NCBI GenBank assembly: GCA_016186145.1
Contig: JACPMF010000007.1
Coordinates: 19,302-83,301 of the forward strand
DNA length: 64,000 nt
Source: Candidatus Sungiibacteriota bacterium
GTDB taxonomy: Bacteria > Patescibacteriota > Minisyncoccia > Sungbacterales > SURF-37
Direction of reading: 5' to 3'
Under the pieces are notes generated by a model. The model worked only from the letters and a program-made list of their open reading frames with translations. It had not been told where the DNA came from and did not search any database. Both the position numbers and the translations under genes were made by a program. This document shows positions 5,925 to 62,289 of the stretch, in pieces (position 1 is the first letter of the stretch; every line of letters starts with the position of its first letter).

Positions 5925-6125
5925 GCCAAATTTATTTAAATTTTGGAGCGAAGCGATAAAATTTAACTATAAATTTGAGCACCCCGTTAGATGCGGAAAT
6001 ATAGTAGTTTTCTACGCCTGGTAAAGTTATACGTGTTATACTTTTTGTAAATTTTTTTATGGTTTGTTCCGCTATCTAACGGGGTAAAGGTTTGGCGGCT
6101 GCGATTTTTGCGCCTGCCGCTTAAA
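5925..6125 (-). promoter_or_regulatory. conserved structured upstream element, copy U1 (family also at 18405, 34662, 56461)
   Basis: Sits directly upstream of the start codon. Shares the flanks ...TTTATAGTTA...AGCACC[hairpin]GGTAAAGGTTT with the other copies. Long-range stem CACCCCGTTAGAT / ATCTAACGGGG. Confidence 0.5.
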
Positions 6126-6142
6126 ATCGCAGGCCAAGCCCT

Positions 6143-7938: not shown

Positions 7939-9324
7939 CTATTGCAACCGTTCCGCGAAATAACTTTCCAAATCTTTCGCCGCAACTCTTTCTTGTTTCA
8001 TGCTGTCCCGATCCCGCACCGTAACTGTTTCGTCTTCCAGCGTCTGAAAATCAACAGTCACACACCACGGCGTCCCTATCTCATCCTGGCTGTAGTAGCG
8101 TTTACCGATATTCCCGCGGTCGTCCCACATCACCTGAACTTGGAATTTACCTGCCCGCCGGCCAGGCAGGGAACTTGGAGCTTTGAAAAGCTGATATATC
8201 TGGCGCGCTTTCTCAACCAACTGCGGCTTATTGGCAAGCAATGGAAACACGGCAACTTTGTACGGCGCGAGCCGCGGATGTAATTTTAGAACCACCCTGC
8301 CTTCTTCTTCATGATATGCATCAAGCAGAAAATACAACAACGGACGCTCGACGCCGCAGGAGGTTTCAATCACCCACGGAATGAAACGATCTTTTACCTC
8401 CGGATCAAAATACGAAAGATCCTCGCCGCTGAATTTTGCATGTTGTGACAAGTCCCAATTACCCCGATTATGAATTCCCTCAGCCTCTTTCCACCCAAAC
8501 GGCGTTTCGTATTCGATGTCCCAGGCCGAACGCGCATAGTGCGCCCGTTCATCCGGCGCGTGCTCCCGAAAACGAAGTCTATCCTTATTCAAGCCGAGCC
8601 CAATATACCATTTCATTCTTTCCTCTTTCCAAAATTCAAAAACTTCCGCCGCCGCTTTCTCTTCCGGACGCACGTAATACTGCAATTCCATTTGCTCAAA
8701 TTCGCGGAGCCGATAGGTAAAGTTCCCTGGCGTAATTTCGTTCCTGAAGGCTTTTCCAATCTGGGCAACGCCGAATGGAATTTTCGGATGCATGGAGTCG
8801 AGGATATTCTTAAAATTCACATGAACGCCTTGCGTTATCTCCCCGCGGAGATACACGGTTGATTTAGATTCTTCAACCGCGCCAAGCCTTGCTTCAACAA
8901 GAAGATTGAACTTCCGCGGCTCAGTCCAATCAACTTTCTCTTTCTTTGCTTTATGCCCCTCCCCGTGCGCCCTTATCTCTTCGTCAAAGTCGGCGCGGAT
9001 TCTTTCGTGGCATGTTTTGCATTCAACCAAAGGGTCGGTGAAAGAAGCGGTGTGTCCCGAAGCCTCCCATACTTTGGGGCTCATCAGGATCGAGGCGTTT
9101 ATCCCGAAAACATTTTCGCGGCGCAACACCATGTACTCCCACCACTGCTGTTTGAAATTAAATTTCAACTCCGCACCCAACGGGCCATAATCCCATGTTC
9201 CGGAAAGCCCGCCGTAAATCTCGGATCCGGGATAAATAAATCCGCGCCGCTTTGCAAGGGAGACAATTTTATCCATCAGCGATTGAGTTTCCTCTTTCAT
9301 CTTTTTCTTTTTAGTCTGAACCAA
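7939..9324 (-). CDS. glyQS: glycyl-tRNA synthetase (dimeric GlyQS type)
   Basis: N-terminus ...MDKIVSLAKRRGFIYPGSEIYGGLSGTWDYGPLG... with class II motifs. The track start is a TTG. ATG at 9300 (MKEETQSL...) is more likely. Contains an in-frame palindromic insertion (APSSLPGRRAGKFQ). Confidence 0.9.
   Translation of the reverse strand: MVQTKKKKMKEETQSLMDKIVSLAKRRGFIYPGSEIYGGLSGTWDYGPLGAELKFNFKQQWWEYMVLRRENVFGINASILMSPKVWEASGHTASFTDPLVECKTCHERIRADFDEEIRAHGEGHKAKKEKVDWTEPRKFNLLVEARLGAVEESKSTVYLRGEITQGVHVNFKNILDSMHPKIPFGVAQIGKAFRNEITPGNFTYRLREFEQMELQYYVRPEEKAAAEVFEFWKEERMKWYIGLGLNKDRLRFREHAPDERAHYARSAWDIEYETPFGWKEAEGIHNRGNWDLSQHAKFSGEDLSYFDPEVKDRFIPWVIETSCGVERPLLYFLLDAYHEEEGRVVLKLHPRLAPYKVAVFPLLANKPQLVEKARQIYQLFKAPSSLPGRRAGKFQVQVMWDDRGNIGKRYYSQDEIGTPWCVTVDFQTLEDETVTVRDRDSMKQERVAAKDLESYFAERLQ
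8136..8178. repeat. in-frame GC-rich palindromic insertion element inside glyS (family also in the femAB-family, Mur ligase and tatD genes)
   Basis: GAACTTGG-AATTTAC-CTGCCCGCCGGCCAGGCAGG-GAACTTGG: hairpin CCTGCCCG/CAGGCAGG flanked by a direct GAACTTGG repeat. Near-identical core to 28583..28610. Confidence 0.5.
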
Positions 9325-17052: not shown

Positions 17053-17433
17053 CTAGTAATGTTCATAGTCCGGGGTAAATGGTTTCCCCTCTTCGTAATT
17101 CGGACAAAACTGTTTATGTTGAAGTGTATGTTCATGGCCAGAACCCCAGCAAAGTGGACAATAATGCATACCAGAAGAACCCAGCGGTTGGTATAGGGTT
17201 CCCGGCTTTTGAAACTCAAACGTCATTCCCGAGCTTTCTGCAAGAAACTTAACTCCTTGAAGAAAACCGCTCAGCGTCTTCAACGAACTGAAGGTTACTA
17301 CGCTTTTCGTGGAAGACACCAACCCTATTTTTGTGACTGTCAGCTGAAGGTCACGCTTTTTGTCTATTTTCTCTTCACCGATAAGGGTTATTTTCGCCAC
17401 AATCTTTGCCATCACCGGCTCCTTTTTTGACAA
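17053..17433 (-). CDS. hypothetical protein with C-terminal Cys/His zinc-ribbon-like motif
   Basis: 126 aa. ...HYCPLCWGSGHEHTLQHKQFCPNYEEG... Lies 29 nt upstream of the exonuclease-WYL gene on the same strand. Confidence 0.45.
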   Translation of the reverse strand: MSKKEPVMAKIVAKITLIGEEKIDKKRDLQLTVTKIGLVSSTKSVVTFSSLKTLSGFLQGVKFLAESSGMTFEFQKPGTLYQPLGSSGMHYCPLCWGSGHEHTLQHKQFCPNYEEGKPFTPDYEHY

Positions 17434-17990: not shown

Positions 17991-18404
17991 CTAGAGGAAA
18001 AAATAAGTATCGATCCCCCACGCACCCGCACCCAAAAAAATGAGCGCTGCGGCCATCGCAAAATACGCAAGATCCAATTCCCAACCGCCTTGTACCGTAA
18101 AACCGACCTTCCCCCACTTTGCCTTCCACATGGCAACCAACATGCTTATTGCGATAAAAACCGCCGCAATTTGAGTGTAGAAACCAAGAAGAACCGCGAT
18201 GCCGCCGAAAAATTCCGCAACACCCGATACAATAATCCAAAACTTTCCCGGCCTGATGCCGATGGAGTCAAACCACCCGGCAGTTCCGGTTCGCGCTTCG
18301 CGGTTAAAAAGCTTCGGGTAGCCGTGAACGATAAAGGCCAGCCCGAGGACAAGCCGAAGAATGAGCGCGGCGAAATCGCCGTATACGAGAAGTGAATAAA
18401 ACAT
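17991..18404 (-). CDS. DoxX-family membrane protein
   Basis: 137 aa, 4 TM helices, LRLVLGLAFIVHGYPKL... matches the DoxX pattern. Confidence 0.75.
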   Translation of the reverse strand: MFYSLLVYGDFAALILRLVLGLAFIVHGYPKLFNREARTGTAGWFDSIGIRPGKFWIIVSGVAEFFGGIAVLLGFYTQIAAVFIAISMLVAMWKAKWGKVGFTVQGGWELDLAYFAMAAALIFLGAGAWGIDTYFFL

Positions 18405-18546
18405 GCCAATTTTATTTATGAGCGTTAGCGAATAACTATAAAATTGAGCACCCTGTTAAATAATTTCGCCTCTGGCGAAAATCCCTTGTCAATTAAAATC
18501 GTAGATTTTATTTGACAAGGGATTTAACAGGGTAAAGTTTTGTTCC
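18405..18546 (-). promoter_or_regulatory. conserved structured upstream element, copy U2
   Basis: Abuts the doxX start codon. Three stems: CCCTGTTAAAT/ATTTAACAGGG, ATTTCGCC/GGCGAAAAT and CCTTGTCAATTAAAA/TTTATTTGACAAGG. The last stem carries compensatory G:C to T:A changes relative to copy U3. Confidence 0.55.
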
Positions 18547-18593
18547 TGAAATCTGTTCGACCTGTCTCCAAATCTCAGACAAAAGCTCTACCT

Positions 18594-19238
18594 TTAATTT
18601 GCCGTCAGCCACTCTGCAACCTCGTCCATAAAAGCAGGTTCCTTTTCAAATATCGTTGTGCCATGCCCCGCGTTTTCAAACACTTTTACCACCTTCTCAA
18701 CGTAGACAGGCGCCATTTCTGAAAGAGTCTTAACTGTGTCTGCTGAATACGGGTCATCGAGAGACGCGACAAAATAAATGCTTTGACCATCCCGAAGCCG
18801 GCTTATCACGGGTTCCGTTTTAACGCCACGATAGTCGAGGCCCGGTGAAAGAAGCATGACTTTAGAAATCTCCAGATGTCCTGCCGCATATTCGAGCGCG
18901 AGGTTCGCCCCGATTGACGCCCCGGCGAGCGAAATCGACGAAGCTTTTTTTGATTTCAGAAATTCAACCCCTGCCCCGATATCTTTAATCGACGCCCGGT
19001 GATCTTTATCAGAAAATTTCTTATATCCGTCTGGTCCGCCTTCGGATTCGCCGTGCCCGCGTAAATCAATGGCGAGCGCCTGAAAACCGCGCTCAACAAG
19101 TTTTTCTGAAAAATCATACCAGCTTTCTTTGGTTGCCGGCATCATATGCACGAGTAAAACCCCCCGCCTGCCGGACTCCCCCGCATAGTTACCCGCAATT
19201 TTAACATTATCGCCCGTAGTTATTGTTACTCGTTCCAT
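18594..19238 (-). CDS. alpha/beta-fold hydrolase (dienelactone hydrolase-like)
   Basis: GASIGA nucleophile elbow (GxSxG) with an HG...E pattern. 214 aa. Confidence 0.8.
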   Translation of the reverse strand: MERVTITTGDNVKIAGNYAGESGRRGVLLVHMMPATKESWYDFSEKLVERGFQALAIDLRGHGESEGGPDGYKKFSDKDHRASIKDIGAGVEFLKSKKASSISLAGASIGANLALEYAAGHLEISKVMLLSPGLDYRGVKTEPVISRLRDGQSIYFVASLDDPYSADTVKTLSEMAPVYVEKVVKVFENAGHGTTIFEKEPAFMDEVAEWLTAN

Positions 19239-26528: not shown

Positions 26529-27860
26529 TTTCGGCCCCATTAATTCTTCCTTGGCAGCCTGCCTGTCGTCCCACGGTATTTTTACTCCGGCAGGACCCAT
26601 GATAAACCGTTCCGCCCCCTTGCCGGTGATAACCACCGTATCGCCGGGCATTGCGAGACGCAGAGCTTCACGAATTGCTTCACGACGATCGATATAGCTT
26701 TTAGCTTTTAGCTTATAGCTTATAGGTACGCCCACCGCAACATCATCTATAATTTTTTGTGGATTTTCATCGTATGGGTCTTCGTTGGTCAAAATAACTT
26801 CGCTGCAAAACTCCGAGGCGATTTTTCCCAACTCCGGGCGTTTCCATTTATCGCGCCCGCCTCCGGCAGCACCCAAGACGCAAAGGAGCTTAAATCTTGG
26901 AGCTTGTCCGCCGAAGGCGGATCCACCTCTGGCGGAGAGCTTGGAGCGCTTACGAAGCGTTTCATAAACTTTCCGCAATGCATTTGGAGTGTGGGCGTAA
27001 TCGACAACCACGCGAAACGGTTCGTTTTGAAGAACTTCAAGCCGACCGGGAATACTCTTTATATGTTTAAGAGCGCCGGCTATATTTTCAAAAGAAACCC
27101 CAAAAGAACGCGCCGTAGCGACAGCCGCAAGGATGTTAGAGACATTAAATTGCCCGAAGAGCGCTGAATAAAAATCTATTCCGCTCACCCGAAAATATAT
27201 TTCGTTTTCGCAAGAAACATTGCTCACCGAAAACTCAACGCCGCCAACAACCAAAGACGCCGTGCTGTAAAAATTTATTTTCGCGCGTGCTCGCTTTGCA
27301 AAAAATTCCCATGCCGGATCGTCGCGATTCAAAACTGCAATTCCGTCGGAACCAAGCGCCTCAAAAAGCTTTGCTTTTGCCGCACGGTATTTCTCAAAAT
27401 CGCCGTGCGACTCAATATGCTCCGGCGTCAAATTCGTAAAGACGGCACAATCAAATGTTATAAACCGGTGCCGAAATTGCTTGATGCCCTCGGAGGTGAC
27501 CTCGATGACGGCAAACCTCGCTCCGGCTCTTCGCGCATCGGCAAGAAACCGCTGGACGGCAAACCTTCCCGGCATGGTCATTTTGAGAACATTCGGCCGC
27601 TCGCTTTCATTAATCTTGAAACGAAGAGAGGAACAGGAGGCAACCGAATAACCGCTTTTCAAAAAAATCTCGTGCAGCAAAGAAACAACGCTCGACTTTC
27701 CATCCGTTCCGGTCACCCCAATGACAACGAGACGGCGCGAAGGGAAAAGATAAAAAAACGCCGCAAAAAAAGCCAGTAAAAAATGGTAAAACGGCTGAAG
27801 CATTTTGAAAATCGGCCGCGGAATAATTTTTTTTAGCAGGGCTAAAACGGAATTTGACAT
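26526..27860 (-). CDS. Mur ligase family protein (MurE/MurF-like UDP-N-acetylmuramoyl-peptide ligase)
   Basis: P-loop VIGVTGTDGKSS. Central and C-terminal Mur ligase domains. Short TM-containing N-terminus. Contains an in-frame palindromic insertion (...LSARGGSAFGGQAPRFK...). Confidence 0.7.
   Translation of the reverse strand: MSNSVLALLKKIIPRPIFKMLQPFYHFLLAFFAAFFYLFPSRRLVVIGVTGTDGKSSVVSLLHEIFLKSGYSVASCSSLRFKINESERPNVLKMTMPGRFAVQRFLADARRAGARFAVIEVTSEGIKQFRHRFITFDCAVFTNLTPEHIESHGDFEKYRAAKAKLFEALGSDGIAVLNRDDPAWEFFAKRARAKINFYSTASLVVGGVEFSVSNVSCENEIYFRVSGIDFYSALFGQFNVSNILAAVATARSFGVSFENIAGALKHIKSIPGRLEVLQNEPFRVVVDYAHTPNALRKVYETLRKRSKLSARGGSAFGGQAPRFKLLCVLGAAGGGRDKWKRPELGKIASEFCSEVILTNEDPYDENPQKIIDDVAVGVPISYKLKAKSYIDRREAIREALRLAMPGDTVVITGKGAERFIMGPAGVKIPWDDRQAAKEELMGPK
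26884..26958. repeat. in-frame palindromic insertion element inside the Mur ligase gene
   Basis: GAGCTTAAATCTTGGAGCTTG-TCCGCCGAAGGCGGATCCACCTCTGGCGGA-GAGCTTGGAGCGCTT. Shares CTTGTCCGCCGAAGGCG(G/A)ATCC with 28556..28580 and is flanked by direct GAGCTTGG repeats. Confidence 0.45.
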
Positions 27861-27930: not shown

Positions 27931-28914
27931 TCACCGCTTGCGTCTCAAAACGCGGAGGACGCTATAAAGAAAATACAGGCCGGGCCGATACACAACGTCC
28001 ACGGCCGAGGGGTATTCGATAACCTGCCCGCCGAAACCAATCTTGAACCGCGTCACTCCCGGCCACCGTCTTTCATCGACCCCCCAAAAATCGTAAAAGC
28101 CAAACCCGCGGTTTTTCGCTTCACGTATAATTTCCCAATGCAGAAGATGGGGGGCCATCATCTCTTTATACGCCCGGGACGAAGCTCCGTGTAGGTAAGT
28201 CGCCGTATGTGACGGCCCATAAAAATTGATAAGCGCGGCCGCCAAAATTTTATCTTCATAACGAGCAAAATAGAGTTCATTCCAAAAATTATCTGAACGG
28301 GTTTCAAAAAGAAACCGGTAGTGACGCTCGTCGTGAAGAGAAAAGCCATCCCGCTGCGACGTCTCGCAGAGAAGAGAAAAAAAGTTCCGGAATTGATCGC
28401 GTTCAACTCTTTGGACAACAACACCGTGCCGTGCCGCAAGACGAATATTGTAACGCGTCTTGGGGTGCATCTCCAAAAGCAACGCATCCTCGGTCTTTGA
28501 TAAATCGAGAATCAGCGTCTTTTGCGGCTGCAATGAATACGATTCGCGAACTTGAAACTTGTCCGCCGAAGGCGAATCCCCACCTGCCTGCCGGCCAGGC
28601 AGGGAACTTGCTTGCCCGCCGAAGCTCCAGCGTAGGCGGGGGGTTTGGAACTTTTCGATTGGTTCTACTCTTAGAAAAATACTTTTCTCCTCTTTTGCAA
28701 CTTTTTCCGCGCTTTCCAAAAATTTTTTGAGATCGCTTTTATTTTCAAAATGCGGCCGCGGAGCATACGCATAACCAAACCCGAAAGGAAGGGCGTGCTG
28801 AATCATAAGCGCGCCTTCCGCCCGCCATATTTTTCTTCCAATTCTTTGCTGAAACTGCTCCCATTCCGATGACTGTAAAAAAGAAATTTCCCGTTCTACT
28901 GAATATGCCATCAT
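27931..28914 (-). CDS. FemAB-family aminoacyl-tRNA-dependent peptidoglycan peptidyltransferase (FemX-like)
   Basis: About 327 aa, FemAB/GNAT-like fold signature (...YLHGASS...). Next to the Mur ligase gene. Carries the longest in-frame palindromic insertion (RWSFGGQASSLPGRQAGGDSPSADKFQV). Confidence 0.75.
   Translation of the reverse strand: MMAYSVEREISFLQSSEWEQFQQRIGRKIWRAEGALMIQHALPFGFGYAYAPRPHFENKSDLKKFLESAEKVAKEEKSIFLRVEPIEKFQTPRLRWSFGGQASSLPGRQAGGDSPSADKFQVRESYSLQPQKTLILDLSKTEDALLLEMHPKTRYNIRLAARHGVVVQRVERDQFRNFFSLLCETSQRDGFSLHDERHYRFLFETRSDNFWNELYFARYEDKILAAALINFYGPSHTATYLHGASSRAYKEMMAPHLLHWEIIREAKNRGFGFYDFWGVDERRWPGVTRFKIGFGGQVIEYPSAVDVVYRPGLYFLYSVLRVLRRKR
28535..28660. repeat. in-frame palindromic insertion element inside the FemAB-family gene (longest copy)
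   Basis: GAACTTGAAACTTG-TCCGCCGAAGGCGAATCCCCACC-TGCCTGCCGGCCAGGCAGG-GAACTTG-CTTGCCCGCCGAAGC-TCCAGCGTAGGCGGGGGGTTTG-GAACTT: central hairpin CCTGCCTG/CAGGCAGG, repeated CCGCCGAAG modules and GAACTTG direct repeats. Confidence 0.5.
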
Positions 28915-29887: not shown

Positions 29888-29914
29888 TATGGTAATAACA
29901 AATAGCGCTCTATA

Positions 29915-31957
29915 ATGTCAAACTTCAAACTTTTTTCAAATTTCAAACCAACCGGAGATCAACCGGGCGCCATTAGCCGACTAACGGCAAATCTGCACGC
30001 CGGCATTAAACATCAAACCCTCTTAGGGGTAACCGGTTCCGGGAAAACATTCACGATGGCAAACGTTATTGAGCGCGTGCAGAAACCAACGCTTGTAATC
30101 TCGCACAACAAAACGCTCGCCGGACAGCTTTACCAGGAATTCAAAGAGTTTTTTCCGAAGAATTCGGTCCATTATTTCGTGTCGTACTACGACTACTACC
30201 AACCGGAAGCATACATTCCCCGAACGGATACCTATATAGAAAAGGATGCAAAAATCAACGATATAATAGACGCCCTCCGGCACGCCGCAACCGCATCCCT
30301 CCTGACGCGCAACGACGTCATTATCGTCGCATCCGTATCGTGCATCTACGGCATCGGCGACCCGGAGGAATACGAAAAAATCACTCTTGATTTAGAAATC
30401 GGCAAAAAAATCGCGCGTCGCGATCTTTTACACTACCTTGTTCTTTTGCAATACGCCAAAAATGAATTTGATCCGCGCCAAGGACATTTCCGCGCGCGAG
30501 GAGACATGATAGAGATTTACCTTCCGTCCGGAGAAGAAATAATCGACGTGGAACTTGAAAACAATATAGTCGTATCGCTGAAGAAACGCCGGCAGCAAAA
30601 CCAAATTCACGATTCTGAATTCCAAACGCTTAATTCCGCGAAAATCTTTCCGGCGAAACACTTTGTCACGCCGCGCCAGAAACTTGAACTGGCCATAAAA
30701 AATATCCGCCAGGAACTGAAAGAACGCCTCTCGGCGCTCAAGAAAAACGGACGGCCGCTCGAAGCCGAGCGGCTGGAGCAACGAACCCATTTTGACCTGG
30801 AAATGTTGAAAGAAACCGGATATACGAACGGGATTGAGAATTATTCCCGCCACCTATCATTTCGCGAACCCGGTTCTCCGCCATCCACCCTTATCGACTA
30901 CTACCGCCACCGTTTTGGCAATCAGTTTCTTGTATTTATCGACGAATCGCATGTGTCTATTCCACAACTTCGCGGCATGTATCACGGCGACTATGCGCGA
31001 AAGCAAACCCTTGTTGATTACGGCTTCCGCTTGCCGTCTGCCATAGACAACAGACCGCTGAAGTTCACGGAGTTTGATAAAAAAATTAACCAACGAATTT
31101 ATGTTTCAGCAACACCGTCTGAGTATGAACTTAATCTGAGCCGCAGTTCGCATTCAGGCGTTCTAAGTTCTCCGCCAGAGGCGGATAAGCTCAAAGTCCC
31201 AAATTCATACGTCGTAGAGCAGTTCATCCGTCCGACCGGAGTTCTTGACCCGGAAACCGAAATCCGACCGACAAAGGGTCAAATCAAAAATGTCATCGCT
31301 GAAATTAAAAAACGCGTAGCCAAAAAAGAACGCTCTCTCGTCCTCGCTCTGACAAAACGCCTCGCAGAAGATATCGCCGAATACCTGCAGGAAGCGGGCA
31401 TCAAAGCCGAATACCTCCACTCCGAAGTAAAAACACTGGAACGCTCTGATATCCTCAAAAATTTGAGAACGGGAAAACATGACGTAATCGTCGGCATCAA
31501 TCTTTTGCGGGAAGGCCTTGATCTGCCGGAGGTTTCTCTTATCGCCATCCTGGACGCCGACAAGGAAGGATTTTTGAGAAACGAAACAACTCTCCTTCAA
31601 ATCATGGGGCGCGCCGCGCGGCATGTTGACGGCAAGGTGGTTCTCTACGCGGACACCATAACCGATTCGATGCGGCGGGCAATCGGCGAAACGAAGCGCC
31701 GGAGAAAAATTCAAGCGGAATACAACAAAAACAACGGCATTACCCCAAAAAAAATTGAAAAGGCAATACGAAAATCTCTCCTTGAAGAAATCGCTCCCGC
31801 CAAAAAGGAAGAAGAAATTTTTACGCCTTTAAACGCGCCCTCTCGAGAGGCTGTATCCGCCTTAGAGCGCGAGATGCGTAAAGCGGCAAAGGAGATGAAC
31901 TTCGAATTGGCCGCGAGAATTAGAGATCGTATTAAAATGTATAAACAGCAAAAATGA
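29915..31957 (+). CDS. uvrB: excinuclease ABC subunit B
   Basis: GVTGSGKTF Walker A, helicase motifs, UvrB interaction domain and C-terminal UvrB/UvrC domain (...EMNFELAARIRDRI...). 680 aa. Confidence 0.95.
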   Translation: MSNFKLFSNFKPTGDQPGAISRLTANLHAGIKHQTLLGVTGSGKTFTMANVIERVQKPTLVISHNKTLAGQLYQEFKEFFPKNSVHYFVSYYDYYQPEAYIPRTDTYIEKDAKINDIIDALRHAATASLLTRNDVIIVASVSCIYGIGDPEEYEKITLDLEIGKKIARRDLLHYLVLLQYAKNEFDPRQGHFRARGDMIEIYLPSGEEIIDVELENNIVVSLKKRRQQNQIHDSEFQTLNSAKIFPAKHFVTPRQKLELAIKNIRQELKERLSALKKNGRPLEAERLEQRTHFDLEMLKETGYTNGIENYSRHLSFREPGSPPSTLIDYYRHRFGNQFLVFIDESHVSIPQLRGMYHGDYARKQTLVDYGFRLPSAIDNRPLKFTEFDKKINQRIYVSATPSEYELNLSRSSHSGVLSSPPEADKLKVPNSYVVEQFIRPTGVLDPETEIRPTKGQIKNVIAEIKKRVAKKERSLVLALTKRLAEDIAEYLQEAGIKAEYLHSEVKTLERSDILKNLRTGKHDVIVGINLLREGLDLPEVSLIAILDADKEGFLRNETTLLQIMGRAARHVDGKVVLYADTITDSMRRAIGETKRRRKIQAEYNKNNGITPKKIEKAIRKSLLEEIAPAKKEEEIFTPLNAPSREAVSALEREMRKAAKEMNFELAARIRDRIKMYKQQK

Positions 31958-32360
31958 AAAAGTCCCGATTTTGTCAAAATTTTAATCGCTCATGTTCTAC
32001 ACATATATACTAAAATCGACCAGAACTGGTGAATACTACATTGGCTATACTGGCGATCTCTACCAACGCTTGTACGAACACAATAAAAACCGAGTTAAAG
32101 CTACACGCGGAAAGGGTCCTTGGAAAGTATTCAATCGGGAAAAATTTCTCACCGAGTATGAGGCTATTAGAAGAGAACGGCAAATAAAAAGCTGGAAAAG
32201 CCGGCGGATGATTGAACGATTAAAATTTTGATACAAAATCGAGGATCCTCGATTCGCCAGCCGCACTTGGCGCGGGGCGAATCGGGACAGCAAAGGAAAT
32301 GAATTTTGAACTCGCCGCAAAAATCCGCGACCGAATAAAGACCTATCGGAAAAATGGTTG
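31958..32360 (+). mobile_element. putative GIY-YIG insertion cassette at the uvrB 3' end, bounded downstream by a diverged ghost duplicate of the uvrB terminus
   Basis: 32291..32360 (CAAAGGAAATGAATTTTGAACTCGCCGCAAAAATCCGCGACCGAATAAAGACCTATCGGAAAAATGGTTGA) re-encodes AKEMNFELAAKIRDRIKTYRKNG* and aligns at about 75% nt identity with the current uvrB 3' end (31887..31957). It also contains the 18-bp palindrome AATCGAGGATCCTCGATT (32237..32254). Confidence 0.45.
31992..32231 (+). CDS. GIY-YIG nuclease family protein (single-domain, UPF0213/YhbQ-like)
   Basis: 79 aa. YTYILKS...YYIGYTGDLYQRLYEHN has the GIY-YIG motif with conserved Arg and Glu. Confidence 0.85.
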   Translation: MFYTYILKSTRTGEYYIGYTGDLYQRLYEHNKNRVKATRGKGPWKVFNREKFLTEYEAIRRERQIKSWKSRRMIERLKF

Positions 32361-32433
32361 ACGGGCGCAGACTTTCTAAGTATCATTTCAGAGCACTTTC
32401 ACAACAAACAGGAAGGTCGATTGGAGGCCCAAC

Positions 32434-33734: not shown

Positions 33735-34661
33735 CTATCCTGTCTGCCGCCCCCCCACAAACAACTCCAGAAACGCAACCGGACCCGAAAGGCGTCCGGT
33801 TTTTATGTTTTCGTCCACGCGGAGAAGCCGCCGATAGTCGAAAATGATTTTTTTCAAAGACAGCCCGGCCGCGGTCTGATAAGTTTTTTTCGCAACAAAC
33901 TCATGAAGACCGAGCGCCCGGCCAACTGCCGACGGTGCTGTGTTTTTCTCGATGGCCGCGCGAAAAGAAATCAACGAACGAAGCGTTTTCGCGAGCGCGC
34001 CAAGAAGGTACAATTCATGCTCGCCGGCAAAAAGAAGCCGCAGAGCCGCCCCCAAAGAACGCCCTCTTTTACCGACAAATGAATCCGTAAAATCCCAAAT
34101 TTTTGCTTCCCGGAGACCCTCGCCATTTTCAAAAAGAAACCCTGCCTCAACTTTTGAAAGTTCACTGGTTAGTTTCCAAAGATCGCCGCCGGAAGAATCA
34201 AGAAGCAGTCGTTTGGCTTCTGACCGGAGAGTCGCCCCCCTACGGAGAAGTTCTTTCTCAAACCAGGAAGCGAGTTTTACTCCCGACAACAACCGGAATT
34301 CTTGAGTCTTTACGGCACTCTCTCGAACAGTAGAAAGTATCTCGCTTTCCTCAACCATAACCGGATCCCAAAAAACGAACGTACAATCTTTTGATGCGGC
34401 CCACTCCTTAAGAAGCGGCCTCACCAAAGAAAACTGTTTTTCTCCCGCCCCAGAAATTCTTTCGATAATAAAAAGCCGCCTTGGCGCCAAAAAAGACGGC
34501 GTGCGGCTCTCGTACCCAACCACTTCGATATTTTCCTCCTCGGCGTCAACGCGCTTTACAAAAGCAGCAGCCCCGCCGGCCTTCTTTCTAAATTCTCCGA
34601 CTATGCCGCGGAGAGTCATGCGGCTGCGGTAGGTATCGGGACCGGAAAGAAGATAGATCAT
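33735..34661 (-). CDS. holA: DNA polymerase III delta subunit
   Basis: 308 aa. N-terminus MIYLLSGPDTYRS..., AAA+-like clamp-loader delta architecture. Confidence 0.7.
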   Translation of the reverse strand: MIYLLSGPDTYRSRMTLRGIVGEFRKKAGGAAAFVKRVDAEEENIEVVGYESRTPSFLAPRRLFIIERISGAGEKQFSLVRPLLKEWAASKDCTFVFWDPVMVEESEILSTVRESAVKTQEFRLLSGVKLASWFEKELLRRGATLRSEAKRLLLDSSGGDLWKLTSELSKVEAGFLFENGEGLREAKIWDFTDSFVGKRGRSLGAALRLLFAGEHELYLLGALAKTLRSLISFRAAIEKNTAPSAVGRALGLHEFVAKKTYQTAAGLSLKKIIFDYRRLLRVDENIKTGRLSGPVAFLELFVGGRQTG

Positions 34662-34803
34662 GCGAATTTTATTTACGAGCGTTAGCGAGTAACTATAAAA
34701 TTCAGCACCCTGTTAAATAATTTCGCCTCTAGCGAAATTCCCTTGGCAAATAAAATCGAGGGTTTATTTGCCAAGAGATTTAACAGGGTAAAGGTTTTGT
34801 AGC
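34662..34803 (-). promoter_or_regulatory. conserved structured upstream element, copy U3
   Basis: Directly abuts the holA ATG. Stems CCCTGTTAAAT/ATTTAACAGGG, ATTTCGCC/GGCGAAAT (loop TCTA) and CTTGGCAAATAAA/TTTATTTGCCAAG. About 90% identical to U2 outside the covarying positions. Confidence 0.55.
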
Positions 34804-34846
34804 TATTTTTGCTTCGCCTCCGGCTCATAAAAATAGACAAAGCCCT

Positions 34847-35251
34847 TTATAGGTACTCGCTCCGTATAATCGTCTGAACTTTTTCGATAATTTCGCCCGG
34901 CGTAAAATAGGCCTTAACCAAGTAATCTTTCACTCCGAAACTTTTCGCGCGCCTTACATCTTCTTCCTGGCCGAGGTTCGAGAGAACCACAACGGGAATT
35001 TTTTTCAAATCCGGATCGTCCTGCATTGTCCGTAACACCTCAAACCCGTCAAGGATCGGGGGCAGAAGATCGAGAAGGATGATGTGCGGCCGCGGCTCAC
35101 CTTTCATTTTTACCAGCGCTTCTTGACCATTCTCCGCGCTTATTACTAATAAGCCCTCGCGCTTCAACTTTTCTGCAAGAAGCGTCAGCAAAAATTTATC
35201 GTCCTCAACGACCAAAATGACAAATTTGTTAAGCGCAATTCCGTTAGGCAT
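34847..35251 (-). CDS. single-domain response regulator (CheY-like receiver)
   Basis: VLVVEDD...D(54-equivalent)LLPPILDGFEV...K. 134 aa. Lies downstream of the histidine kinase gene. Confidence 0.85.
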   Translation of the reverse strand: MPNGIALNKFVILVVEDDKFLLTLLAEKLKREGLLVISAENGQEALVKMKGEPRPHIILLDLLPPILDGFEVLRTMQDDPDLKKIPVVVLSNLGQEEDVRRAKSFGVKDYLVKAYFTPGEIIEKVQTIIRSEYL

Positions 35252-55348: not shown

Positions 55349-56329
55349 CTACTCCTTTACGTCGATGTCGAACCCGAAAATACTTCGCTTGCCGTATGTC
55401 GGAGGCGTTTTTGGGTCATCTTGAACCGACGTCACGTCATGCCAAAGAGGAGAATTGCGATCTTGCTGGAAAAGCCCTTGCCCGGGCTGTAAACATGCCC
55501 GCAGGTATTCTGTTTTTTTATCAGGCCCGTACACAATGCTCTCACCGCCAATAACTCCGTCGCGTTCAACGACCAAGGCGGAAATGATATAGTCCGCACC
55601 GTCCTGGTGAATGCCTTCAGGCGCATTCGTACCTTCGCCATCGGCGTCTGCAAAAATGCTTACCTGGTGAACTGCGGCCGAAAGCGTCTTAACTGCAGGT
55701 CGCACTTCCCGAATCATTTCCGCAACGCATCCGAGAAGGTGCTGGAAGTCAGGGTGGCCCGTAACCATTTCCGAAATCTCCTTAAAAGCGCGGGTGAAAG
55801 ACCGCGCGTCGCCGCTCTCCACATTTTGAGAAAAACTGTCTGCCGGACGCCGCGTAATTCTCCAACCCGCCGGCATAGACGGCTCGCGGTCGAAAAGAAG
55901 CCTGGCGATAGCGCGCTTTCTCCGCGGACGAATGCGCTCCAAAACCCACCGCTCTCCTTGTGAAAGCCGAACAATGAGATCGCCGACGTCCTCTAGCCCT
56001 TTTCTACCGGCATAATATTCGGGAAGAAGCGCATCGAGTCGGGACTTCTCATGGAAGAAGCGCTGTGTGAGATACGCCACCTGATCTCTTTTTACATCAT
56101 ACTCATCCCATGACAACAAGCTGAATGTTGGAGCGAGTTCACTGATGAACCGCTCCCGGTTAACCCCCAGACCTCCCAGATCAAACATGCGCACGGGATG
56201 TCCAATGGGGCTGCCCAATTTCGCCGAAAGAGCCGCCTCGTCAGCAAGATAACCGAAAAAGGGCTTTGTCATTGCTGTCCTCCGCTTTGAAAGAACACCA
56301 CAAACGATTTGCCCATTACTATACAACAA
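55349..56329 (-). CDS. hypothetical protein, possible 2OG-Fe dioxygenase-like (PF10014-like)
   Basis: ...APEGIHQDGADYIISALVVERDGVIGGESIVYGP... resembles the 2OG-Fe_Oxy_2 core. 326 aa. Confidence 0.4.
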   Translation of the reverse strand: MLYSNGQIVCGVLSKRRTAMTKPFFGYLADEAALSAKLGSPIGHPVRMFDLGGLGVNRERFISELAPTFSLLSWDEYDVKRDQVAYLTQRFFHEKSRLDALLPEYYAGRKGLEDVGDLIVRLSQGERWVLERIRPRRKRAIARLLFDREPSMPAGWRITRRPADSFSQNVESGDARSFTRAFKEISEMVTGHPDFQHLLGCVAEMIREVRPAVKTLSAAVHQVSIFADADGEGTNAPEGIHQDGADYIISALVVERDGVIGGESIVYGPDKKTEYLRACLQPGQGLFQQDRNSPLWHDVTSVQDDPKTPPTYGKRSIFGFDIDVKE

Positions 56330-56460
56330 AAAATAAAAATTGCAATATGGCGTGGCGGTTTACCAAACTGGAGCCGCATAAAAGTTTGGACAAATAAACA
56401 AAAGTGCGCTACCAATTAAAGGGCTTTATCCAAAATTTAGAGCCGGTGGCGAACAAATTT

Positions 56461-56637
56461 TGGTTACAAAACATTACCCTGTTAAATAATTTTGCCGCAG
56501 GCAAAATTCCCCTGTTAAATCTTTTGCCTTCGGCAAAAGAAAACCAAGGGTTTTATTTAACAGGGGATTTAACAGGGTGCTGAATTTTACAGTCGCTCGC
56601 GCTGCGCAAAATACTTACGCTCGCGAGTAAAATTTGC
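56461..56637 (+). promoter_or_regulatory. conserved structured upstream element, copy U4 (inverted in window coordinates but same orientation relative to its gene)
   Basis: TTACCCTGTTAAAT ... ATTTAACAGGGTGCTGAATTTTACAGT... ends at the ATG of 56638. Internal stems TTTTGCC(GCAG)GGCAAAA, CCCCTGTTAAAT...ATTTAACAGGGG and TTTTGCC(TTCG)GGCAAAA. Confidence 0.55.
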
Positions 56638-57762
56638 ATGTCCCCAAATGATCAAGCGCTTGCGCTTATAAAAAAGAGTAATGCGGTTGCCGTAGCGCTT
56701 CCGGAAAAAGCCGGAGTGGATGAAATTTGTTCCGCTGCGGCCGCGCTAAAAATTCTCACAAAACTCGGGAAAAACACCGGCATTTTTTTCTCGGGAACCG
56801 TCCCTGTAGTTTTTGAAAAACTCTTTCCCGCCAACACCCTCCTGCAAAACGGAGCAGACGTCCTTTCGGATTTCGTTATTGAAATAAACAAAACCTCGTC
56901 GCCGATCGGAGAACTCCGTTATCAAAAGACAGAATCAACGCTTTCGATAATTATCTCGCCAAAAGACCGGCCAATAAAAAAGGAGGACATCGTTTTGAAG
57001 TCGGGAAAAAAGAAATGCGATCTTCTCATCGCCTTCGGAGTGAACGAGCTTTCTGAAATCGGGCCGGCTTTTGAAAACTCGCCGGAACTTTTCTATGAAA
57101 AGCCGCTCATCGCATTCAGTTTATCTCCCGAGACAGAAACAGTGAGTGAAGTCAGCCTTGCCGATCCTGCCCGCAGTTCAATCTCGGAAATTTCAGGCGA
57201 ATTCTTTTTTGAGGCCTTCCCGGAACAAATCGACAAAGACGCCGCAACCCTTTTTCTTCTTGGAATCGTCTATAAAACAAAAAACTTCAGGAGCGGGCGC
57301 GTACGACCGAAAACCTTTGCCGCCGCCGCGCGGCTCATTGAGCGCGGCGCTCTGCTCGACGAAATTGTCAGAATCCTTTGGAAAACAAAGCCGCTGCCGC
57401 TCCTTCAACTTTGGGGCAGAGCCGCAGTCCGTTCGCGATACGACGAAGGAAAAAAATCCCTTATCGCCGTCCTCACCAAAGACGATTTTCTAAAAACGAA
57501 CACGACGCCGGAGAACGGCCTGCCGTTTGTCCTTGAACACCTTGAGGAACACTTTCTCCTTCCGAAAAACTTCGCGCTTCTTTGGCAAAACCCGCGCGAT
57601 GAAACAGTTAACTGCTTAATTAAAAATCCCCTCCACGACCACGAGAAAAAAGGGCTTACCCGATCACCGGCAAAAGAAGGATACCTTGAATTCTTAAAAA
57701 CTTTTGCCTCGTTCCAAGAAGCCGAAAAAACTGTTACGGCGCTCTTTGCTTACAACGTCTAA
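56638..57762 (+). CDS. DHH-family-like protein (NrnA-like architecture, catalytic DHH motif not evident)
   Basis: 374 aa. N-terminal ...AVAVALPEKAGVDEICSAAAALKIL... parallels the NrnA DHH region but lacks DHH. Confidence 0.45.
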   Translation: MSPNDQALALIKKSNAVAVALPEKAGVDEICSAAAALKILTKLGKNTGIFFSGTVPVVFEKLFPANTLLQNGADVLSDFVIEINKTSSPIGELRYQKTESTLSIIISPKDRPIKKEDIVLKSGKKKCDLLIAFGVNELSEIGPAFENSPELFYEKPLIAFSLSPETETVSEVSLADPARSSISEISGEFFFEAFPEQIDKDAATLFLLGIVYKTKNFRSGRVRPKTFAAAARLIERGALLDEIVRILWKTKPLPLLQLWGRAAVRSRYDEGKKSLIAVLTKDDFLKTNTTPENGLPFVLEHLEEHFLLPKNFALLWQNPRDETVNCLIKNPLHDHEKKGLTRSPAKEGYLEFLKTFASFQEAEKTVTALFAYNV

Positions 57763-58745: not shown

Positions 58746-58865
58746 AAAGCCCTCCTGTATTCAGTTTATTTTCAAACAACGGTAAGTATAAACAAAAATA
58801 CTATACAAATAGTTTAGAAACAACCGCCCGTTCATATTTTTGCCGCAAGGCCGTATAATAAGCCT

Positions 58866-60533
58866 ATGCCTATTTTTGAAGAGGAAAAACAAAAAAAGAA
58901 AATTGCGGGCCTCTGGCGCCAAGAGGAAGAGGAAACAACAAAACTGCTTTCTGAAAAATATAAAGTCTCCTATTTGAACCTCGCAATAACGCCCATAAAC
59001 ACCGAAGCATTGAAAATCGTGCCTGAAGAAGAGTCGCGCCGGGCAGGACTTGCGGTCTTCCAAAAAATCGGGAAACGGCTTGAGATTGCCGTCGGCGGAC
59101 CAGACAGATCGGAAACTGTCGCCGCCCTCAAAAAACTCGCCAACGACGGATATGCCTATACCCTCCATCTTGTCTCAAAAACCAGTCTTGAGCACGCGTG
59201 GGGTTTTTTTAAACAGATCGCGGAACGCGGGGATGCCATTACCGGCCACATCCAAATCTCTGACGCTCGCCTCGAAGAATTTCAAAAAAGCCTTGCAACG
59301 CTCAAAGACCTTCAGGGGCTCCTCCACGAAATTGGGACAAAACGCACCACCGACACCCTGGAATTGATCATCGCGGGCGCCCTGAAAACAGACGCCTCGG
59401 ACATACACATAGAGCCGCAAGAAGAAATTGCCAGGATTCGATACCGCCTGGACGGAGTGTTGCATGACGCGGCAGACATCCCTACCGCCGTTTACAAACC
59501 GCTTCGCTCCCGAATCAAACTCATCTCCGAACTAAAACTCAACATAACCGCCAAAGGACAAGACGGGAGATTTACCATAAAAAGCGCCGGAACAGAAACA
59601 GAAGTCAGAACCTCCACCCTCCCGGGTCCCTACGGAGAAAACATTGTAATGCGAATCCTCTCCCCAAAAGCGATCGCGATGAAATTTGAAGATCTCGGCA
59701 TGCAATCGTGGGCAAGAGAACAAATGGAGCGCGAGCTGAAAAAACCAAACGGTATGATCCTTGCAACGGGGCCGACCGGATCGGGGAAAACAACAACACT
59801 CTACGGCTTTCTGAAAAAAATCCACTCACCGGACATCAAAATCGTCACGATTGAAGACCCTATCGAATACCATTTAACCGGCATTGAACAAACACAGGTA
59901 GAACCGGAACACGGATACGATTTTGCTTCAGGGCTTCGCTCCATCATCCGCCAGGATCCCGATGTCATCCTTGTCGGCGAGATTCGCGACCTGGAAACAG
60001 CAGAAACGGCAATGCACGCCTCCCTCACCGGCCATCTTGTCTTCTCCACCCTGCATACCAACAGTGCCGCAGGGACAATCCCGCGCCTTTTAGACATCGG
60101 CGTCAAACCGACCATCATTGCCCCGGCCGTAAATATCGCCATGGCGCAACGGCTTCTCCGCCGGCTCTGCACGGCATGCAGCGTAAAAGGGCCGGCAACC
60201 GCAGAAGAACGCAAAACAATAGCAGCGGAATTTGCTCTGTTTCCTCCTAAAATTAAAAAACCGGACATCCGCGAACTGGAACTTTCCCGAGCCACAGGGT
60301 GCCAGGCATGCAATCTCACCGGTTACAAAGGCAGAACCGGCGTTTACGAAATAATCCTCATCGACGATGCCATGGAAGCCCTCATCTTCAAGGACCCGTC
60401 TGAAGCAACAATAAAAAAAGCCGCCTTTGAACAGGGGCAGATCACTATGCGCCAAGACGGAATACTAAAAATCGTAGCCGGCGTCACAGACCTCGCTGAG
60501 CTAGAACGAGTAGTCGGCGGTGCAACAATGTAA
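58866..60533 (+). CDS. pilB: type II/IV secretion system ATPase (PilB/GspE family)
   Basis: N-terminal GspII-like domain, Walker A ATGPTGSGKTTTL, Asp and His boxes, and a C-terminal tetracysteine (CTAC...CQAC). Confidence 0.9.
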   Translation: MPIFEEEKQKKKIAGLWRQEEEETTKLLSEKYKVSYLNLAITPINTEALKIVPEEESRRAGLAVFQKIGKRLEIAVGGPDRSETVAALKKLANDGYAYTLHLVSKTSLEHAWGFFKQIAERGDAITGHIQISDARLEEFQKSLATLKDLQGLLHEIGTKRTTDTLELIIAGALKTDASDIHIEPQEEIARIRYRLDGVLHDAADIPTAVYKPLRSRIKLISELKLNITAKGQDGRFTIKSAGTETEVRTSTLPGPYGENIVMRILSPKAIAMKFEDLGMQSWAREQMERELKKPNGMILATGPTGSGKTTTLYGFLKKIHSPDIKIVTIEDPIEYHLTGIEQTQVEPEHGYDFASGLRSIIRQDPDVILVGEIRDLETAETAMHASLTGHLVFSTLHTNSAAGTIPRLLDIGVKPTIIAPAVNIAMAQRLLRRLCTACSVKGPATAEERKTIAAEFALFPPKIKKPDIRELELSRATGCQACNLTGYKGRTGVYEIILIDDAMEALIFKDPSEATIKKAAFEQGQITMRQDGILKIVAGVTDLAELERVVGGATM

Positions 60534-60972: not shown

Positions 60973-61980
60973 ATGTCAACTGACCCCCAAAAGATAAAAA
61001 AAGAAGACGGATCTCTCGACGCCTCATTACGGCCCCAGCGCTGGGATGAATACATCGGCCAGGAACGAACCAAAGAAAATTTGAAAATACTGCTCGGAGC
61101 CGCCAAAAAACGCGGGGATCCCGTGGAGCACGTTCTTCTCTACGGTCCCGCCGGGCTCGGCAAAACCAGTTTATCTCACCTTATCGCACGGGAAATGAAC
61201 ACGAATATCCGCGTTACATCGGGTCCGGCAATTGAGCGAGTCGGCGACCTTGCGTCAATTCTTACAAACCTCCTCCCGCACGACATCCTTTTTATCGACG
61301 AAGCCCATCGGTTGAATAAGCTCATTGAGGAAGTCCTTTACCCGGCGATGGAAACAAGAACCATAGACATCATCATCGGCAAGGGCCCTTCTGCAAGAAC
61401 GATCCAAATAGAGCTCCCCCCGTTCACCCTTATTGCCGCAACAACCAGAATCGGCCTTCTTTCTTCGCCCCTCCGCTCGCGCTTCGGCGTCACTTTCCGA
61501 CTGGATTTTTATAGTAAAGAAGAAATAAATAAAATTCTCCGCCGATCGGCAAACCTTTTAAAAACAGAGATCAACGAGCCGGCCCTCCAAATAATCGCCG
61601 CTGCCTCCCGCTCAACACCAAGAGTTGCAAACCGGCTCTTAAAACGAGTCCGCGACTATGCGGAAGTGCACGCAAACGGCATTATCACAGAAAAAGAGGC
61701 CGCAGCCGCCCTAAAACTCCTGCAAATAGACGAGCTCGGCCTCGAACCGGCAGACCGGCGGATCCTCGAAACCATCATCAACAAATTTAGCGGCGGGCCC
61801 GTCGGGATCCAAACACTCGCCGCCGCAACGTTTGAAGAAGAAGAAACAATCGAGGAAGTATACGAACCATACCTCATGCAGCTTGGTTTCATTGAACGGA
61901 CTCCGCGCGGCAGAGTTGCAGCCGCTCGCGCTTATGAACATCTGGGAGTTAGTTTACCAAGGCAAAACAACCTAATCTAA
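60973..61980 (+). CDS. ruvB: Holliday junction DNA helicase RuvB
   Basis: Walker [10 protein letters not shown], Walker B DEAHRL, sensor motifs, C-terminal winged helix. 335 aa. Confidence 0.95.
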
Positions 61981-62088
61981 GGCAGTAATCAACGAAATAC
62001 AAATCTGTTGCGAATATACGAATCGCGCGCGATAAATTATTCGTAAATTCGTAATAAATTCGTTATTCGCTGATAGAGCGGAGCGAAC

Positions 62089-62289
62089 ATGATTTTAATT
62101 CTCGCCTCAATTTTTTCTCTCTTCGCGCTTGTTTACGCACTCATTGCCGGCGCAGTCCTTTATCATCTATGGCACTACACCCTCCCTGGCTGGACCGCGG
62201 CAAGATTTGTTGTTCCGACATTCCTGGTTATTTCGACATTTTTCTTTATCCTCGCCGCATATTTCCTTTTCAGTACGTCAGCGGGATAG
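62089..62289 (+). CDS. small membrane protein (2 TM)
   Basis: 66 aa, two hydrophobic helices. Immediately upstream of the bPH_2 protein gene. Confidence 0.45.
   Translation: MILILASIFSLFALVYALIAGAVLYHLWHYTLPGWTAARFVVPTFLVISTFFFILAAYFLFSTSAG

Follow-up and report, generated by a model that had tools for sequence, protein, structure and literature searches.

Intergenic hairpin elements of a Patescibacteria genome as probable relics of a mobile GIY-YIG nuclease cassette

What are the hairpin-rich sequences that stand directly before four unrelated genes in a stretch of 64,000 nucleotides (nt) from a Candidatus Sungiibacteriota genome (contig JACPMF010000007.1; hereafter the window)? A first-pass annotation, made from the sequence alone, had described them as one family of structured elements and had offered as explanations a structured 5′ leader, a small RNA (sRNA), a promoter module and a MITE (miniature inverted-repeat transposable element); of these the MITE comes closest, whereas the other three are unsupported. 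We conclude, with a probability of roughly 0.7, that the four elements are MITE-like, non-autonomous derivatives, each lacking the open reading frame (ORF), of an insertion sequence (IS)-like cassette that encodes a GIY-YIG nuclease and is widespread in Patescibacteria (the candidate phyla radiation, CPR). Because the elements take up the space that separates a gene's stop codon from the start codon of the gene that follows, we do not read them as regulatory leaders or promoter modules.

Four elements between stop and start codons

All four copies, here called U1 to U4, are present where they had been placed, lie in the orientation of the downstream gene and stop at its ATG. Their 5′ boundaries had been drawn too short: a further covarying hairpin carries each copy to an upstream TAA, and from that TAA to the downstream ATG the elements measure 185-221 nt, not about 150. 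In gene orientation every copy has the same order of modules: TAA, HP-A, HP-B, HP-C, ATG. HP-A, the added 5′ module, is a clamp (AGGGCTTTGT/ACAAAACCTTT) enclosing a variable hairpin with the apex GAGC..GCGAA; HP-B, in the middle, is a 12-base-pair (bp) outer stem (ACCCYGTTARAT/ATYTAACRGGGT) around one to three small hairpins; and HP-C, the 3′ module, has the form GCT-SAATTTTAT..ATAAAATTS′-GC with the apex TTCGC..GCTC, its base pairing the nucleotides just before the ATG. A conserved ‘box’ had been recognized at this place and is indeed there, but its pairing, SAATTTTAT with ATAAAATTS′ immediately ahead of the start codon, had been missed; position S covaries within the window, being C..G in U1 and U2 and G..C in U3 and U4. 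The copies and their modules are as follows.

5925-6142, minus strand: U1 whole, from the TAA of an M16 peptidase gene (6143-6145) to the ATG of the AI-2E transporter gene (5922-5924)
6086-6142, minus strand: U1 HP-A, clamp AGGGCTTGG..CCAAACCTTT around the hairpin CTGCGATTTT..AAAATCGCAG
5981-6085, minus strand: U1 HP-B, left arm 6074-6085, right arm 5981-5992
5925-5980, minus strand: U1 HP-C, GCTCAAATTTAT..ATAAATTTGGC, abutting the ATG
18405-18593, minus strand: U2 whole, from the TAA of an alpha/beta-hydrolase gene (18594-18596) to the ATG of doxX (18402-18404)
18534-18593, minus strand: U2 HP-A
18450-18533, minus strand: U2 HP-B, left arm 18522-18533 and right arm 18450-18461, with two inner hairpins (60 nt) between them
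18405-18449, minus strand: U2 HP-C, GCTCAATTTTAT..ATAAAATTGGC
34662-34846, minus strand: U3 whole (the copy originally flagged), from the TAA of a response-regulator gene (34847-34849) to the ATG of holA (34659-34661)
34790-34846, minus strand: U3 HP-A, clamp AGGGCTTTGT..ACAAAACCTTT, upper stem CTATTTTT/AAAAATAG, apical motif GAGCCGGAGGCGAA
34707-34789, minus strand: U3 HP-B, left arm 34778-34789, right arm 34707-34718
34662-34706, minus strand: U3 HP-C, GCTGAATTTTAT..ATAAAATTCGC, apical motif CTCGCTAACGCTCG
56420-56637, plus strand: U4 whole, in a divergent intergenic region, after the TAA at 56417-56419
56420-56475, plus strand: U4 HP-A
56476-56578, plus strand: U4 HP-B, left arm 56476-56487, right arm 56567-56578
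56579-56637, plus strand: U4 HP-C, GCTGAATTTTAC..GTAAAATTTGC

The upstream TAA is the stop codon of the preceding gene in U1, U2 and U3 and ends no gene in U4, where the downstream ATG at 56638 opens an unannotated gene of 374 amino acids. Three of the identities proposed for the downstream genes hold (AI-2E transporter, DoxX, and the DNA polymerase III delta C-terminal domain of holA), but ‘DHH-like’ for the gene at 56638-57762 is unconfirmed, since that gene has no Pfam match even at E ≤ 1; the holA protein of the window has no exact record in the protein lookup. The arms of U2 are of what we call type 1, and those of U1 of type 2 (ACCCCGTTAGAT/ATCTAACGGGGT). U1 also differs from other copies by covariation in the base stem of HP-A (CTTGG/CCAAA versus TTTGT/ACAAA), and its A-rich HP-B interior of 81 nt is closed by AGCGGAA/TTCCGC. 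The inner hairpins of U3 HP-B are CTCTTGGCAAATAAA/TTTATTTGCCAAGGG and AATTTCGC/GCGAAATT, and the apical motif of its HP-C, CTCGCTAACGCTCG, is the reverse complement of that of its HP-A; U4 HP-B holds a mini hairpin, AATTTTGCC/GGCAAAATT, and a nested second palindrome, CCCCTGTTAAAT..ATTTAACAGGGG (56509-56566).

Within the window a 21-nt core, GGGTGCTSAATTTTATAGTTA, occurs four times against 0.00 expected, and the 14-nt arm 12 times against 4.9 expected, a count reached in none of 100 shuffles. An exact match to the HP-A 5′ motif at 56258-56270 is due to chance and is coding sequence (ATG ACA AAG CCC TTT). The spacer at 61980-62089 holds no convincing remnant of an element, though its ortholog at L013, one of the metagenome loci described below, is filled.

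The substitutions that preserve pairing reflect a real constraint. Both examples given by the first-pass annotation are correct: the compensatory change from GGC/GCC in U3 to GTC/GAC in U2 (which also carries one uncompensated A>T), and the exchange of the outer stem, CCCTGTTAAAT/ATTTAACAGGG in the other copies, for CCCCGTTAGAT/ATCTAACGGGG in U1. We took 23 copies from many genomes, aligned with MAFFT and not fitted to structure, and scored the helices of HP-A, HP-B and HP-C. Paired cells made up 97.0%, against 83.0% in shuffles, and double changes filled 116 cells, against 30, with 21 pairs affected; neither value was reached in 500 shuffles, and slid controls were only 34-52% paired. Across 145 copies the outer arms fall into two matched types, T-A/A-T in 89 and C-G/G-C in 43, and 1708 of 1740 pairs are Watson-Crick. 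The base helix of HP-C occurs in 40 distinct variants that match their own partner at 8.4 of 9 positions, against 5.6 when partners are permuted; selection of these variants is partly circular, and independent confirmation comes from the 23-copy test. Since the HP-A and HP-C apices, GAGC..GCGAA and TTCGC..GCTC, are reverse complements, the cassette from which the elements derive has hairpin-shaped terminal inverted repeats.

The nuclease cassette and its derivatives

The short elements originate from longer ones that encode a protein. At L013 the same arms enclose a 5′-truncated GIY-YIG ORF ending ..KSYLTGC*, of which 58 C-terminal codons are left, and a search with its peptide returned 381 proteins of 84-90 amino acids with PF01541 as their only domain and with C-termini reading ..SYLTG, ..SYLTGC or ..SYLTGCSIL. 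The full cassette is found at L016 and L022 in the order HP-A, left arm, a 20-26-nt untranslated region (UTR), intact ORF, right arm, HP-C, and it matches the window copies in HP-A, left arm, right arm and 3′ leader. It starts with TAA and AGGGCTTTGTC, followed by the HP-A hairpin, ACAAAACCTTT and the left arm ACCCYGTTARAT; it ends with the right arm ATYTAACRGGGT, which codes Y-L-T-G in nuclease subfamily 1, and with HP-C, whose 3′ strand ends about 3 nt before the ATG of the next gene. In L016 and L022 HP-C is placed 35-50 nt before that ATG.

The ORF ends TCT TAT TTA ACA GGG TGC TCA ATT TTA TAG, coding ..KSYLTGC(SIL)*, and the right arm together with GCTSAATTTTATAG codes the nuclease C-terminus Y-L-T-G-C-S-I-L-stop. 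Because full-length copies code the C-terminus there, the right arm and ‘TATAG box’ of the window elements are relic codons: Y-L-T-G-C-S-I-L-stop across the right arm and next bases of U2, and Y-L-T-G-C-stop in U3 HP-B. Inside the cassette, AATTTTAAATTTTC in the UTR pairs with GAAAATTTAAAATT (codons ENLKL), and AAGATTTGAGG (codons RFEE) pairs with CCTCAAATCTT (codons RLKS). These two long-range stems place the coding sequence in the loops of a three-way junction, which the short forms retain as mini-hairpins.

Hairpin repeats (the arms ACCCYGTTARAT/ATYTAACRGGGT, HP-A and HP-C) flank the ORF on both sides in L016, L022, L037, L062, L080, L081 and L084. Type-1 arms go with YLTG-type ORFs in all five intact copies translated, and the type-2 arms of L081 and L084, as in U1, with a second nuclease subfamily whose ORFs end ..KND(T)ID* or ..KNDI*, the stop codon falling inside the right arm. 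Our own idea that the arm types differ by synonymous changes of the YLTG codons was thus wrong. The nearest profile matches of the nuclease family are the UPF0213 structures 1zg2 (2e-11) and 1ywl, followed by SLX1; an NCBIfam scan gave one match only, below threshold, to a group I intron endonuclease, and tblastn against plasmids gave two weak matches of no use.

Long and short forms are linked by partly deleted intermediates. Full-length copies with a broken ORF (L048, L107) are followed by copies with a partial ORF (the 58 codons of L013 and, shorter, about 26 codons by eye in L115), then by copies that retain stem S1, collapsed to a 4-nt loop, with degenerate filler (L030, L066, L090), and finally by short interiors of 9-141 nt, most often 32-34 nt, as in most of the other loci listed.

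Further copies, for which the first-pass annotation had proposed a wider scan, are abundant. A metagenome scan with the left arm gave at least 120 loci; among those listed, seven are full length by interior, five of them with an intact ORF. A scan of one genome per species gave 13 true copies in seven Patescibacteria metagenome-assembled genomes (MAGs), whose labels include Saccharibacteria and Jorgensenbacteria. The MAG copies stand upstream of unrelated genes, several of which read from their first codons as rpsL, rpsM, rplC, ssb and lepA, and in other genomes copies lie between consecutive genes of apparent ribosomal-protein clusters (identities by eye, from N-terminal sequences). Copy density reaches four per 64 kilobases (kb) in the window, at least nine in the fetched parts of MAG CAZDKA01 (to whose proteins those of the window are 65-80% identical) and up to three within 3.4 kb in L050. 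The viral contig collection held no copies.

Orthologous sites occur both filled and empty. A short copy lies between an infA-like stop codon and the rpmJ ATG in L061 (names read from the translated flanks), and L040, from another metagenome, has the empty site ..TAA AAT ATG.. between flanks 96% and 99.8% identical to those of L061. The site of a full-length copy in L062 is empty in L071; the filled site carries a 15-bp direct duplication, ATGGCAAAAATAAAG, and L111 has a tandem pair there. L050 and L044 are filled at two sites, the matching L043 sites are empty, and native spacers of 46 and 27 nt have been replaced. In 73 of 112 copies (65%) the 5′ TAA serves as the stop of an ORF of 50 codons or more, against a background of 6.5% for TAAA; in 71 of 75 copies an ORF of 60 codons or more begins at the 3′ ATG, and the other four run off the contig. 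The TAA belongs to the element, because it is present where no gene ends (U4 and L016).

Three loci add observations of their own. At the P0032 locus (L146, 1470-1860; one source names P0032 as Bacteroidetes) the GIY-YIG gene belongs to the family described here, with arms that read CCCTGTTAAATA/TATTTAACAGGG and both inner stems kept by compensated changes; the cassette appears to interrupt a four-helix-bundle gene resembling those of 23S intervening sequences, and a solo hairpin, ACCCTGTGAAATAA..TTATTTCACAGGGT, adjoins it. A cluster of TGTGGATAA repeats, resembling DnaA boxes, lies directly upstream of the full-length cassette of L016 (2700-2910), which may be an origin-proximal insertion. 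In L015 an element stands upstream of an apparent lepA; the same site in L126 (380-900) holds a different ORF of about 120 amino acids with flanking repeats of the ACAAATA type, and appears to host different selfish inserts.

Mobility and rival readings

How might such a cassette leave relics of this kind? Internal deletions remove the coding loops and spare the stems, yielding the short multi-hairpin elements of the window. A mechanism of mobility, and a reason for the stop-to-start fit, we infer along the following lines. By analogy with the Ssn/SRM, REP/RAYT and IS200/IS605 systems, the hairpins may form in single-stranded DNA (ssDNA), where the cassette's own enzyme, provided in trans by intact copies, may recognize and perhaps cleave them; such an interaction would account for both the spread of the elements and the kept pairing. 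Co-orientation and the exact fit between genes probably result from insertion preference together with selection, such that only copies leaving both neighbouring genes expressed would persist.

Several points weigh against this account. The 64-kb window contains no intact cognate (YLTGC-type) nuclease gene, as a putative source for mobilization in trans in this genome; the nuclease family has no known activity, cleavage site or transposition intermediate; and one end of the L040 contig, which provides one of the empty sites, is probably chimeric. The whole native spacer has been replaced by the element in three of four comparisons, unlike a simple insertion. Target-site duplications are absent apart from one locus: among 68 copies scored for a shared flank, matches stay at or below 8 nt except in L111, whose two tandem copies have flank matches of 16 and 19 nt (L062 carries the same 15-bp duplication). 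Orientation, finally, tracks the gene and not the replication strand (U4 occupies the opposite strand, and GC skew is uniform across the window), and an orientation that follows the gene fits selection at the level of the transcript as well as, or better than, an ssDNA mechanism at the replication fork.

It is on selection of this kind that the best-surviving rival is built, one that we nonetheless regard as unlikely: that the hairpins, whatever their origin, are a domesticated cis-acting structure of messenger RNA (mRNA), their pairing selected in RNA, which joins the upstream stop to the downstream start for termination-reinitiation or translational coupling, or else serves processing or stabilization. 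Co-orientation with the downstream gene is indeed constant, holding on the other strand too (U4); HP-C ends about 3 nt before a real start in 71 of 75 copies, and the 5′ TAA is the upstream stop in 65%. Shine-Dalgarno sequences are absent from many genes of the window. Where the cassette is full length, the 5′ strand of HP-C contains the stop codon of the nuclease gene, so that a terminating ribosome would open the downstream start region. The sense RNA of U3 has a folding energy of -66.9 kcal/mol (z = -6.8), and the antisense strand, folded as DNA, reaches z = -10.7. Yet the helices carry no signature of selection on the sense transcript, for they lack the excess of sense-strand G:U pairs that is usual for mRNA structure: in HP-A and HP-B the two strands are alike in stability and in G:U content, the antisense strand of HP-C folds more stably than the sense strand in 58 of 65 copies, and in the base helix of HP-C A.C mismatches exceed G.T by 9 to 1. 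The downstream genes, moreover, are unrelated, near-identical strains lack the element, and the conserved ‘box’ is what remains of a coding sequence. Rfam has no matching family: at the gathering threshold the window yields two transfer RNAs (tRNAs) only, and three full-length loci searched at E ≤ 5 yield nothing on the element. A scan of U3 for intrinsic terminators found none on the gene strand. The missing G:U excess, the copies inside apparent ribosomal-protein clusters and the presence or absence of the element between near-identical strains also speak against the leader, sRNA and promoter readings of the first-pass annotation.

Less probable again is a system that serves the host, of the Ssn type, in which the hairpins would be kept not as selfish DNA but as targets at which a resident nuclease cuts ssDNA and thereby modulates natural transformation. 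The Ssn system is a precedent, such a role having been proposed for the dispersed hairpins of the Neisseria NTS (PMC11893778); natural competence is reported in Saccharibacteria (PMC10187176), and the window holds another intact single-domain GIY-YIG gene with its own inverted repeats. This proposal has to contend with broken ORFs and decaying remnants of ORFs in the copies, a state typical of declining selfish elements, and with a published SRM motif that is unmatched here. We consider it very improbable that the element is a module delivering a promoter, with TATAGT as the -10 box driving the downstream gene: although the gene after U4 needs a promoter of its own, the intergenic region there being divergent, and many copies start with TATAAAGG, which resembles a -10 hexamer, the proposed box TTTATAGT is, with the right arm, the relic 3′ end of the GIY-YIG ORF, its TATAG being the stop-codon region, which varies freely where HP-C covaries (for example TGTTGTAG, TTTGTAAC), copies are found between genes that follow one another in one direction, 0.4-1.9 kb apart on the same strand, and a consensus scan at U3 (34600-34900) found no sigma-70 -35/-10 pair spaced 16-18 nt apart on the gene (minus) strand.

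If the mobile-cassette reading is right, it accounts for a prominent class of conserved ‘intergenic structure’ in Patescibacteria genomes that would otherwise be mistaken for riboswitch-like leaders, sRNAs or promoters, extends the recently found pairing of hairpin repeats with tiny GIY-YIG nucleases to a major uncultured radiation whose genomes are very small, and provides clear evidence that such pairs behave as mobile, decaying cassettes. We found no description of such elements in Patescibacteria or CPR in the literature. A stronger claim, which we advance tentatively and would not yet bet on, is that they represent an undescribed IS-like class in CPR: the sole protein would be a single-domain GIY-YIG nuclease of about 86 amino acids, its coding sequence woven into the element's own conserved three-way-junction hairpins; insertion or retention would be exactly stop-to-start, the element supplying the TAA and abutting the ATG, so that operon expression survives; and ORF-less families would be mobilized in trans through recognition of ssDNA hairpins. 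The design is unusual, with a nuclease gene inside covarying long-range stems and an element reaching exactly from stop codon to start codon, and it makes testable predictions: recognition of ssDNA, and tolerance of insertions inside operons by a streamlined genome. The nuclease-hairpin pairs of the two arm types are also candidates for new site-specific ssDNA nucleases.

The window contains other repeats. Just after the uvrB stop codon lies a second intact GIY-YIG cassette (31960-32361), whose ORF (31992-32231, plus strand; 79 amino acids; PF01541, 1.3e-15) is 35% identical to the YLTGC family and is enclosed by nested inverted repeats, GTCCCGATT/AATCGGGAC and 31969-31992 with 32213-32236. 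On its 3′ side is a relic duplicate of the uvrB C-terminus (EMNFELAAKIRDRIKTYRKNG*), as if a replacement gene end had come in with the cassette. The hairpins of its right end recur without an ORF at 441-494, 81% complementary to 32235-32288 and upstream of two tRNA genes, which suggests that this second family, too, sheds relics in miniature. A further family consists of mini-hairpin repeats rich in GC (for example GTCCGCCGAAGGCGGATCC and CCTGCCTGCCGGCCAGGCAGG), which lie in frame within protein-coding genes, one of them inside uvrB (..SSHSGVLSSPPEADKLKVPNS..), and are reminiscent of Rickettsia palindromic elements:

26896-26949, 28551-28606, 31158-31186, 8148-8173 and 63753-63778: GC-rich mini-hairpin repeats

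Separately, the ATG at 58866 is preceded at a distance of 6 nt by a TATAAT hexamer (58851-58868), and an AT-rich stretch ending in TATA abuts the uvrB ATG at 29915 (29891-29917), which suggests mRNAs that are leaderless or have very short leaders.

Comparison with known systems

Integron attC sites (RYYYAAC..GTTRRRY) were considered and rejected: AAC/GTT is innermost in attC, whereas here the polarity is reversed, GTTAAAT coming first and ATTTAAC second with GTT/AAC outermost, and the copies lie 12-22 kb apart, where attC sites stand at the 3′ end of single-gene cassettes next to an integrase. The ORFs examined include no integrase, in a window that was not searched for one. Free-standing GIY-YIG homing endonuclease genes of phages (Seg, the I-TevI family) resemble the cassette in placing a GIY-YIG gene between conserved co-oriented genes, in long-range hairpins around the start codon that could limit translation, and in flank differences that cluster at the junction. 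Unlike them, the present family encodes a protein of 84-90 amino acids with no DNA-binding domain, occupies many unrelated sites per genome instead of one cognate site, has abundant ORF-less derivatives and is absent from the viral contig collection.

With bacterial MITEs (Correia/NEMIS, RUP, BOX) the window elements share a short, ORF-less, intergenic and highly structured form with terminal inverted repeats, an origin as internal-deletion derivatives of a longer coding element, co-transcription with neighbouring genes and, here, presence/absence polymorphism at orthologous sites; they differ in having no DDE transposase parent, no regular target-site duplication, and ends that are stop and start codons. 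REP/REPIN-RAYT and IS200/IS605 elements are likewise dispersed extragenic palindromes with covarying stems, their non-autonomous copies far outnumbering the coding one, and in these systems ssDNA hairpins are thought to be recognized by a small nuclease of the related element, as we suppose here by analogy. Their enzyme, however, is an HUH (Y1) tyrosine transposase, not a GIY-YIG nuclease, and the present elements, at 185-221 nt, have three modules and a strict gene-relative orientation; a GTAG/CGTC tetranucleotide at the hairpin foot is not conserved (HP-A feet read CTAC, GAAC, TTAC and CTAG by eye, uncounted).

The closest known system is Ssn/SRM (Chenal et al., Nat Commun 2025, PMC11893778). 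Its single-domain GIY-YIG nucleases bind hairpin repeats, and cut them, only when these are ssDNA, and its SRM/NTS repeats, in hundreds of copies, flank the Ssn gene in the manner of an IS (PMC11893778). There too the protein has a single GIY-YIG domain and about 90 amino acids (84-90 here, PF01541 only), inverted-repeat hairpins lie on both sides of the gene as in an IS, many further copies of these hairpins are scattered, mostly between genes, and each nuclease clade has its own matched repeats. There are also differences. The degenerate SRM motif, HGTCWYN(0-2)YYVSBRHN(0-5)WNVSBRGN(0-2)RNCYNB, does not match the elements, its one match in the window (17290-17318; mean of 0.37 in shuffles) lying outside them; the hosts are Patescibacteria, not mentioned in PMC11893778; and here the repeats are deletion derivatives that retain the last codons of the ORF, the ORF lies inside conserved long-range stems, and the copies fill the stop-to-start gap co-oriented with the genes. 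We take the element to be a new variant of the Ssn/SRM and REP/RAYT kind.

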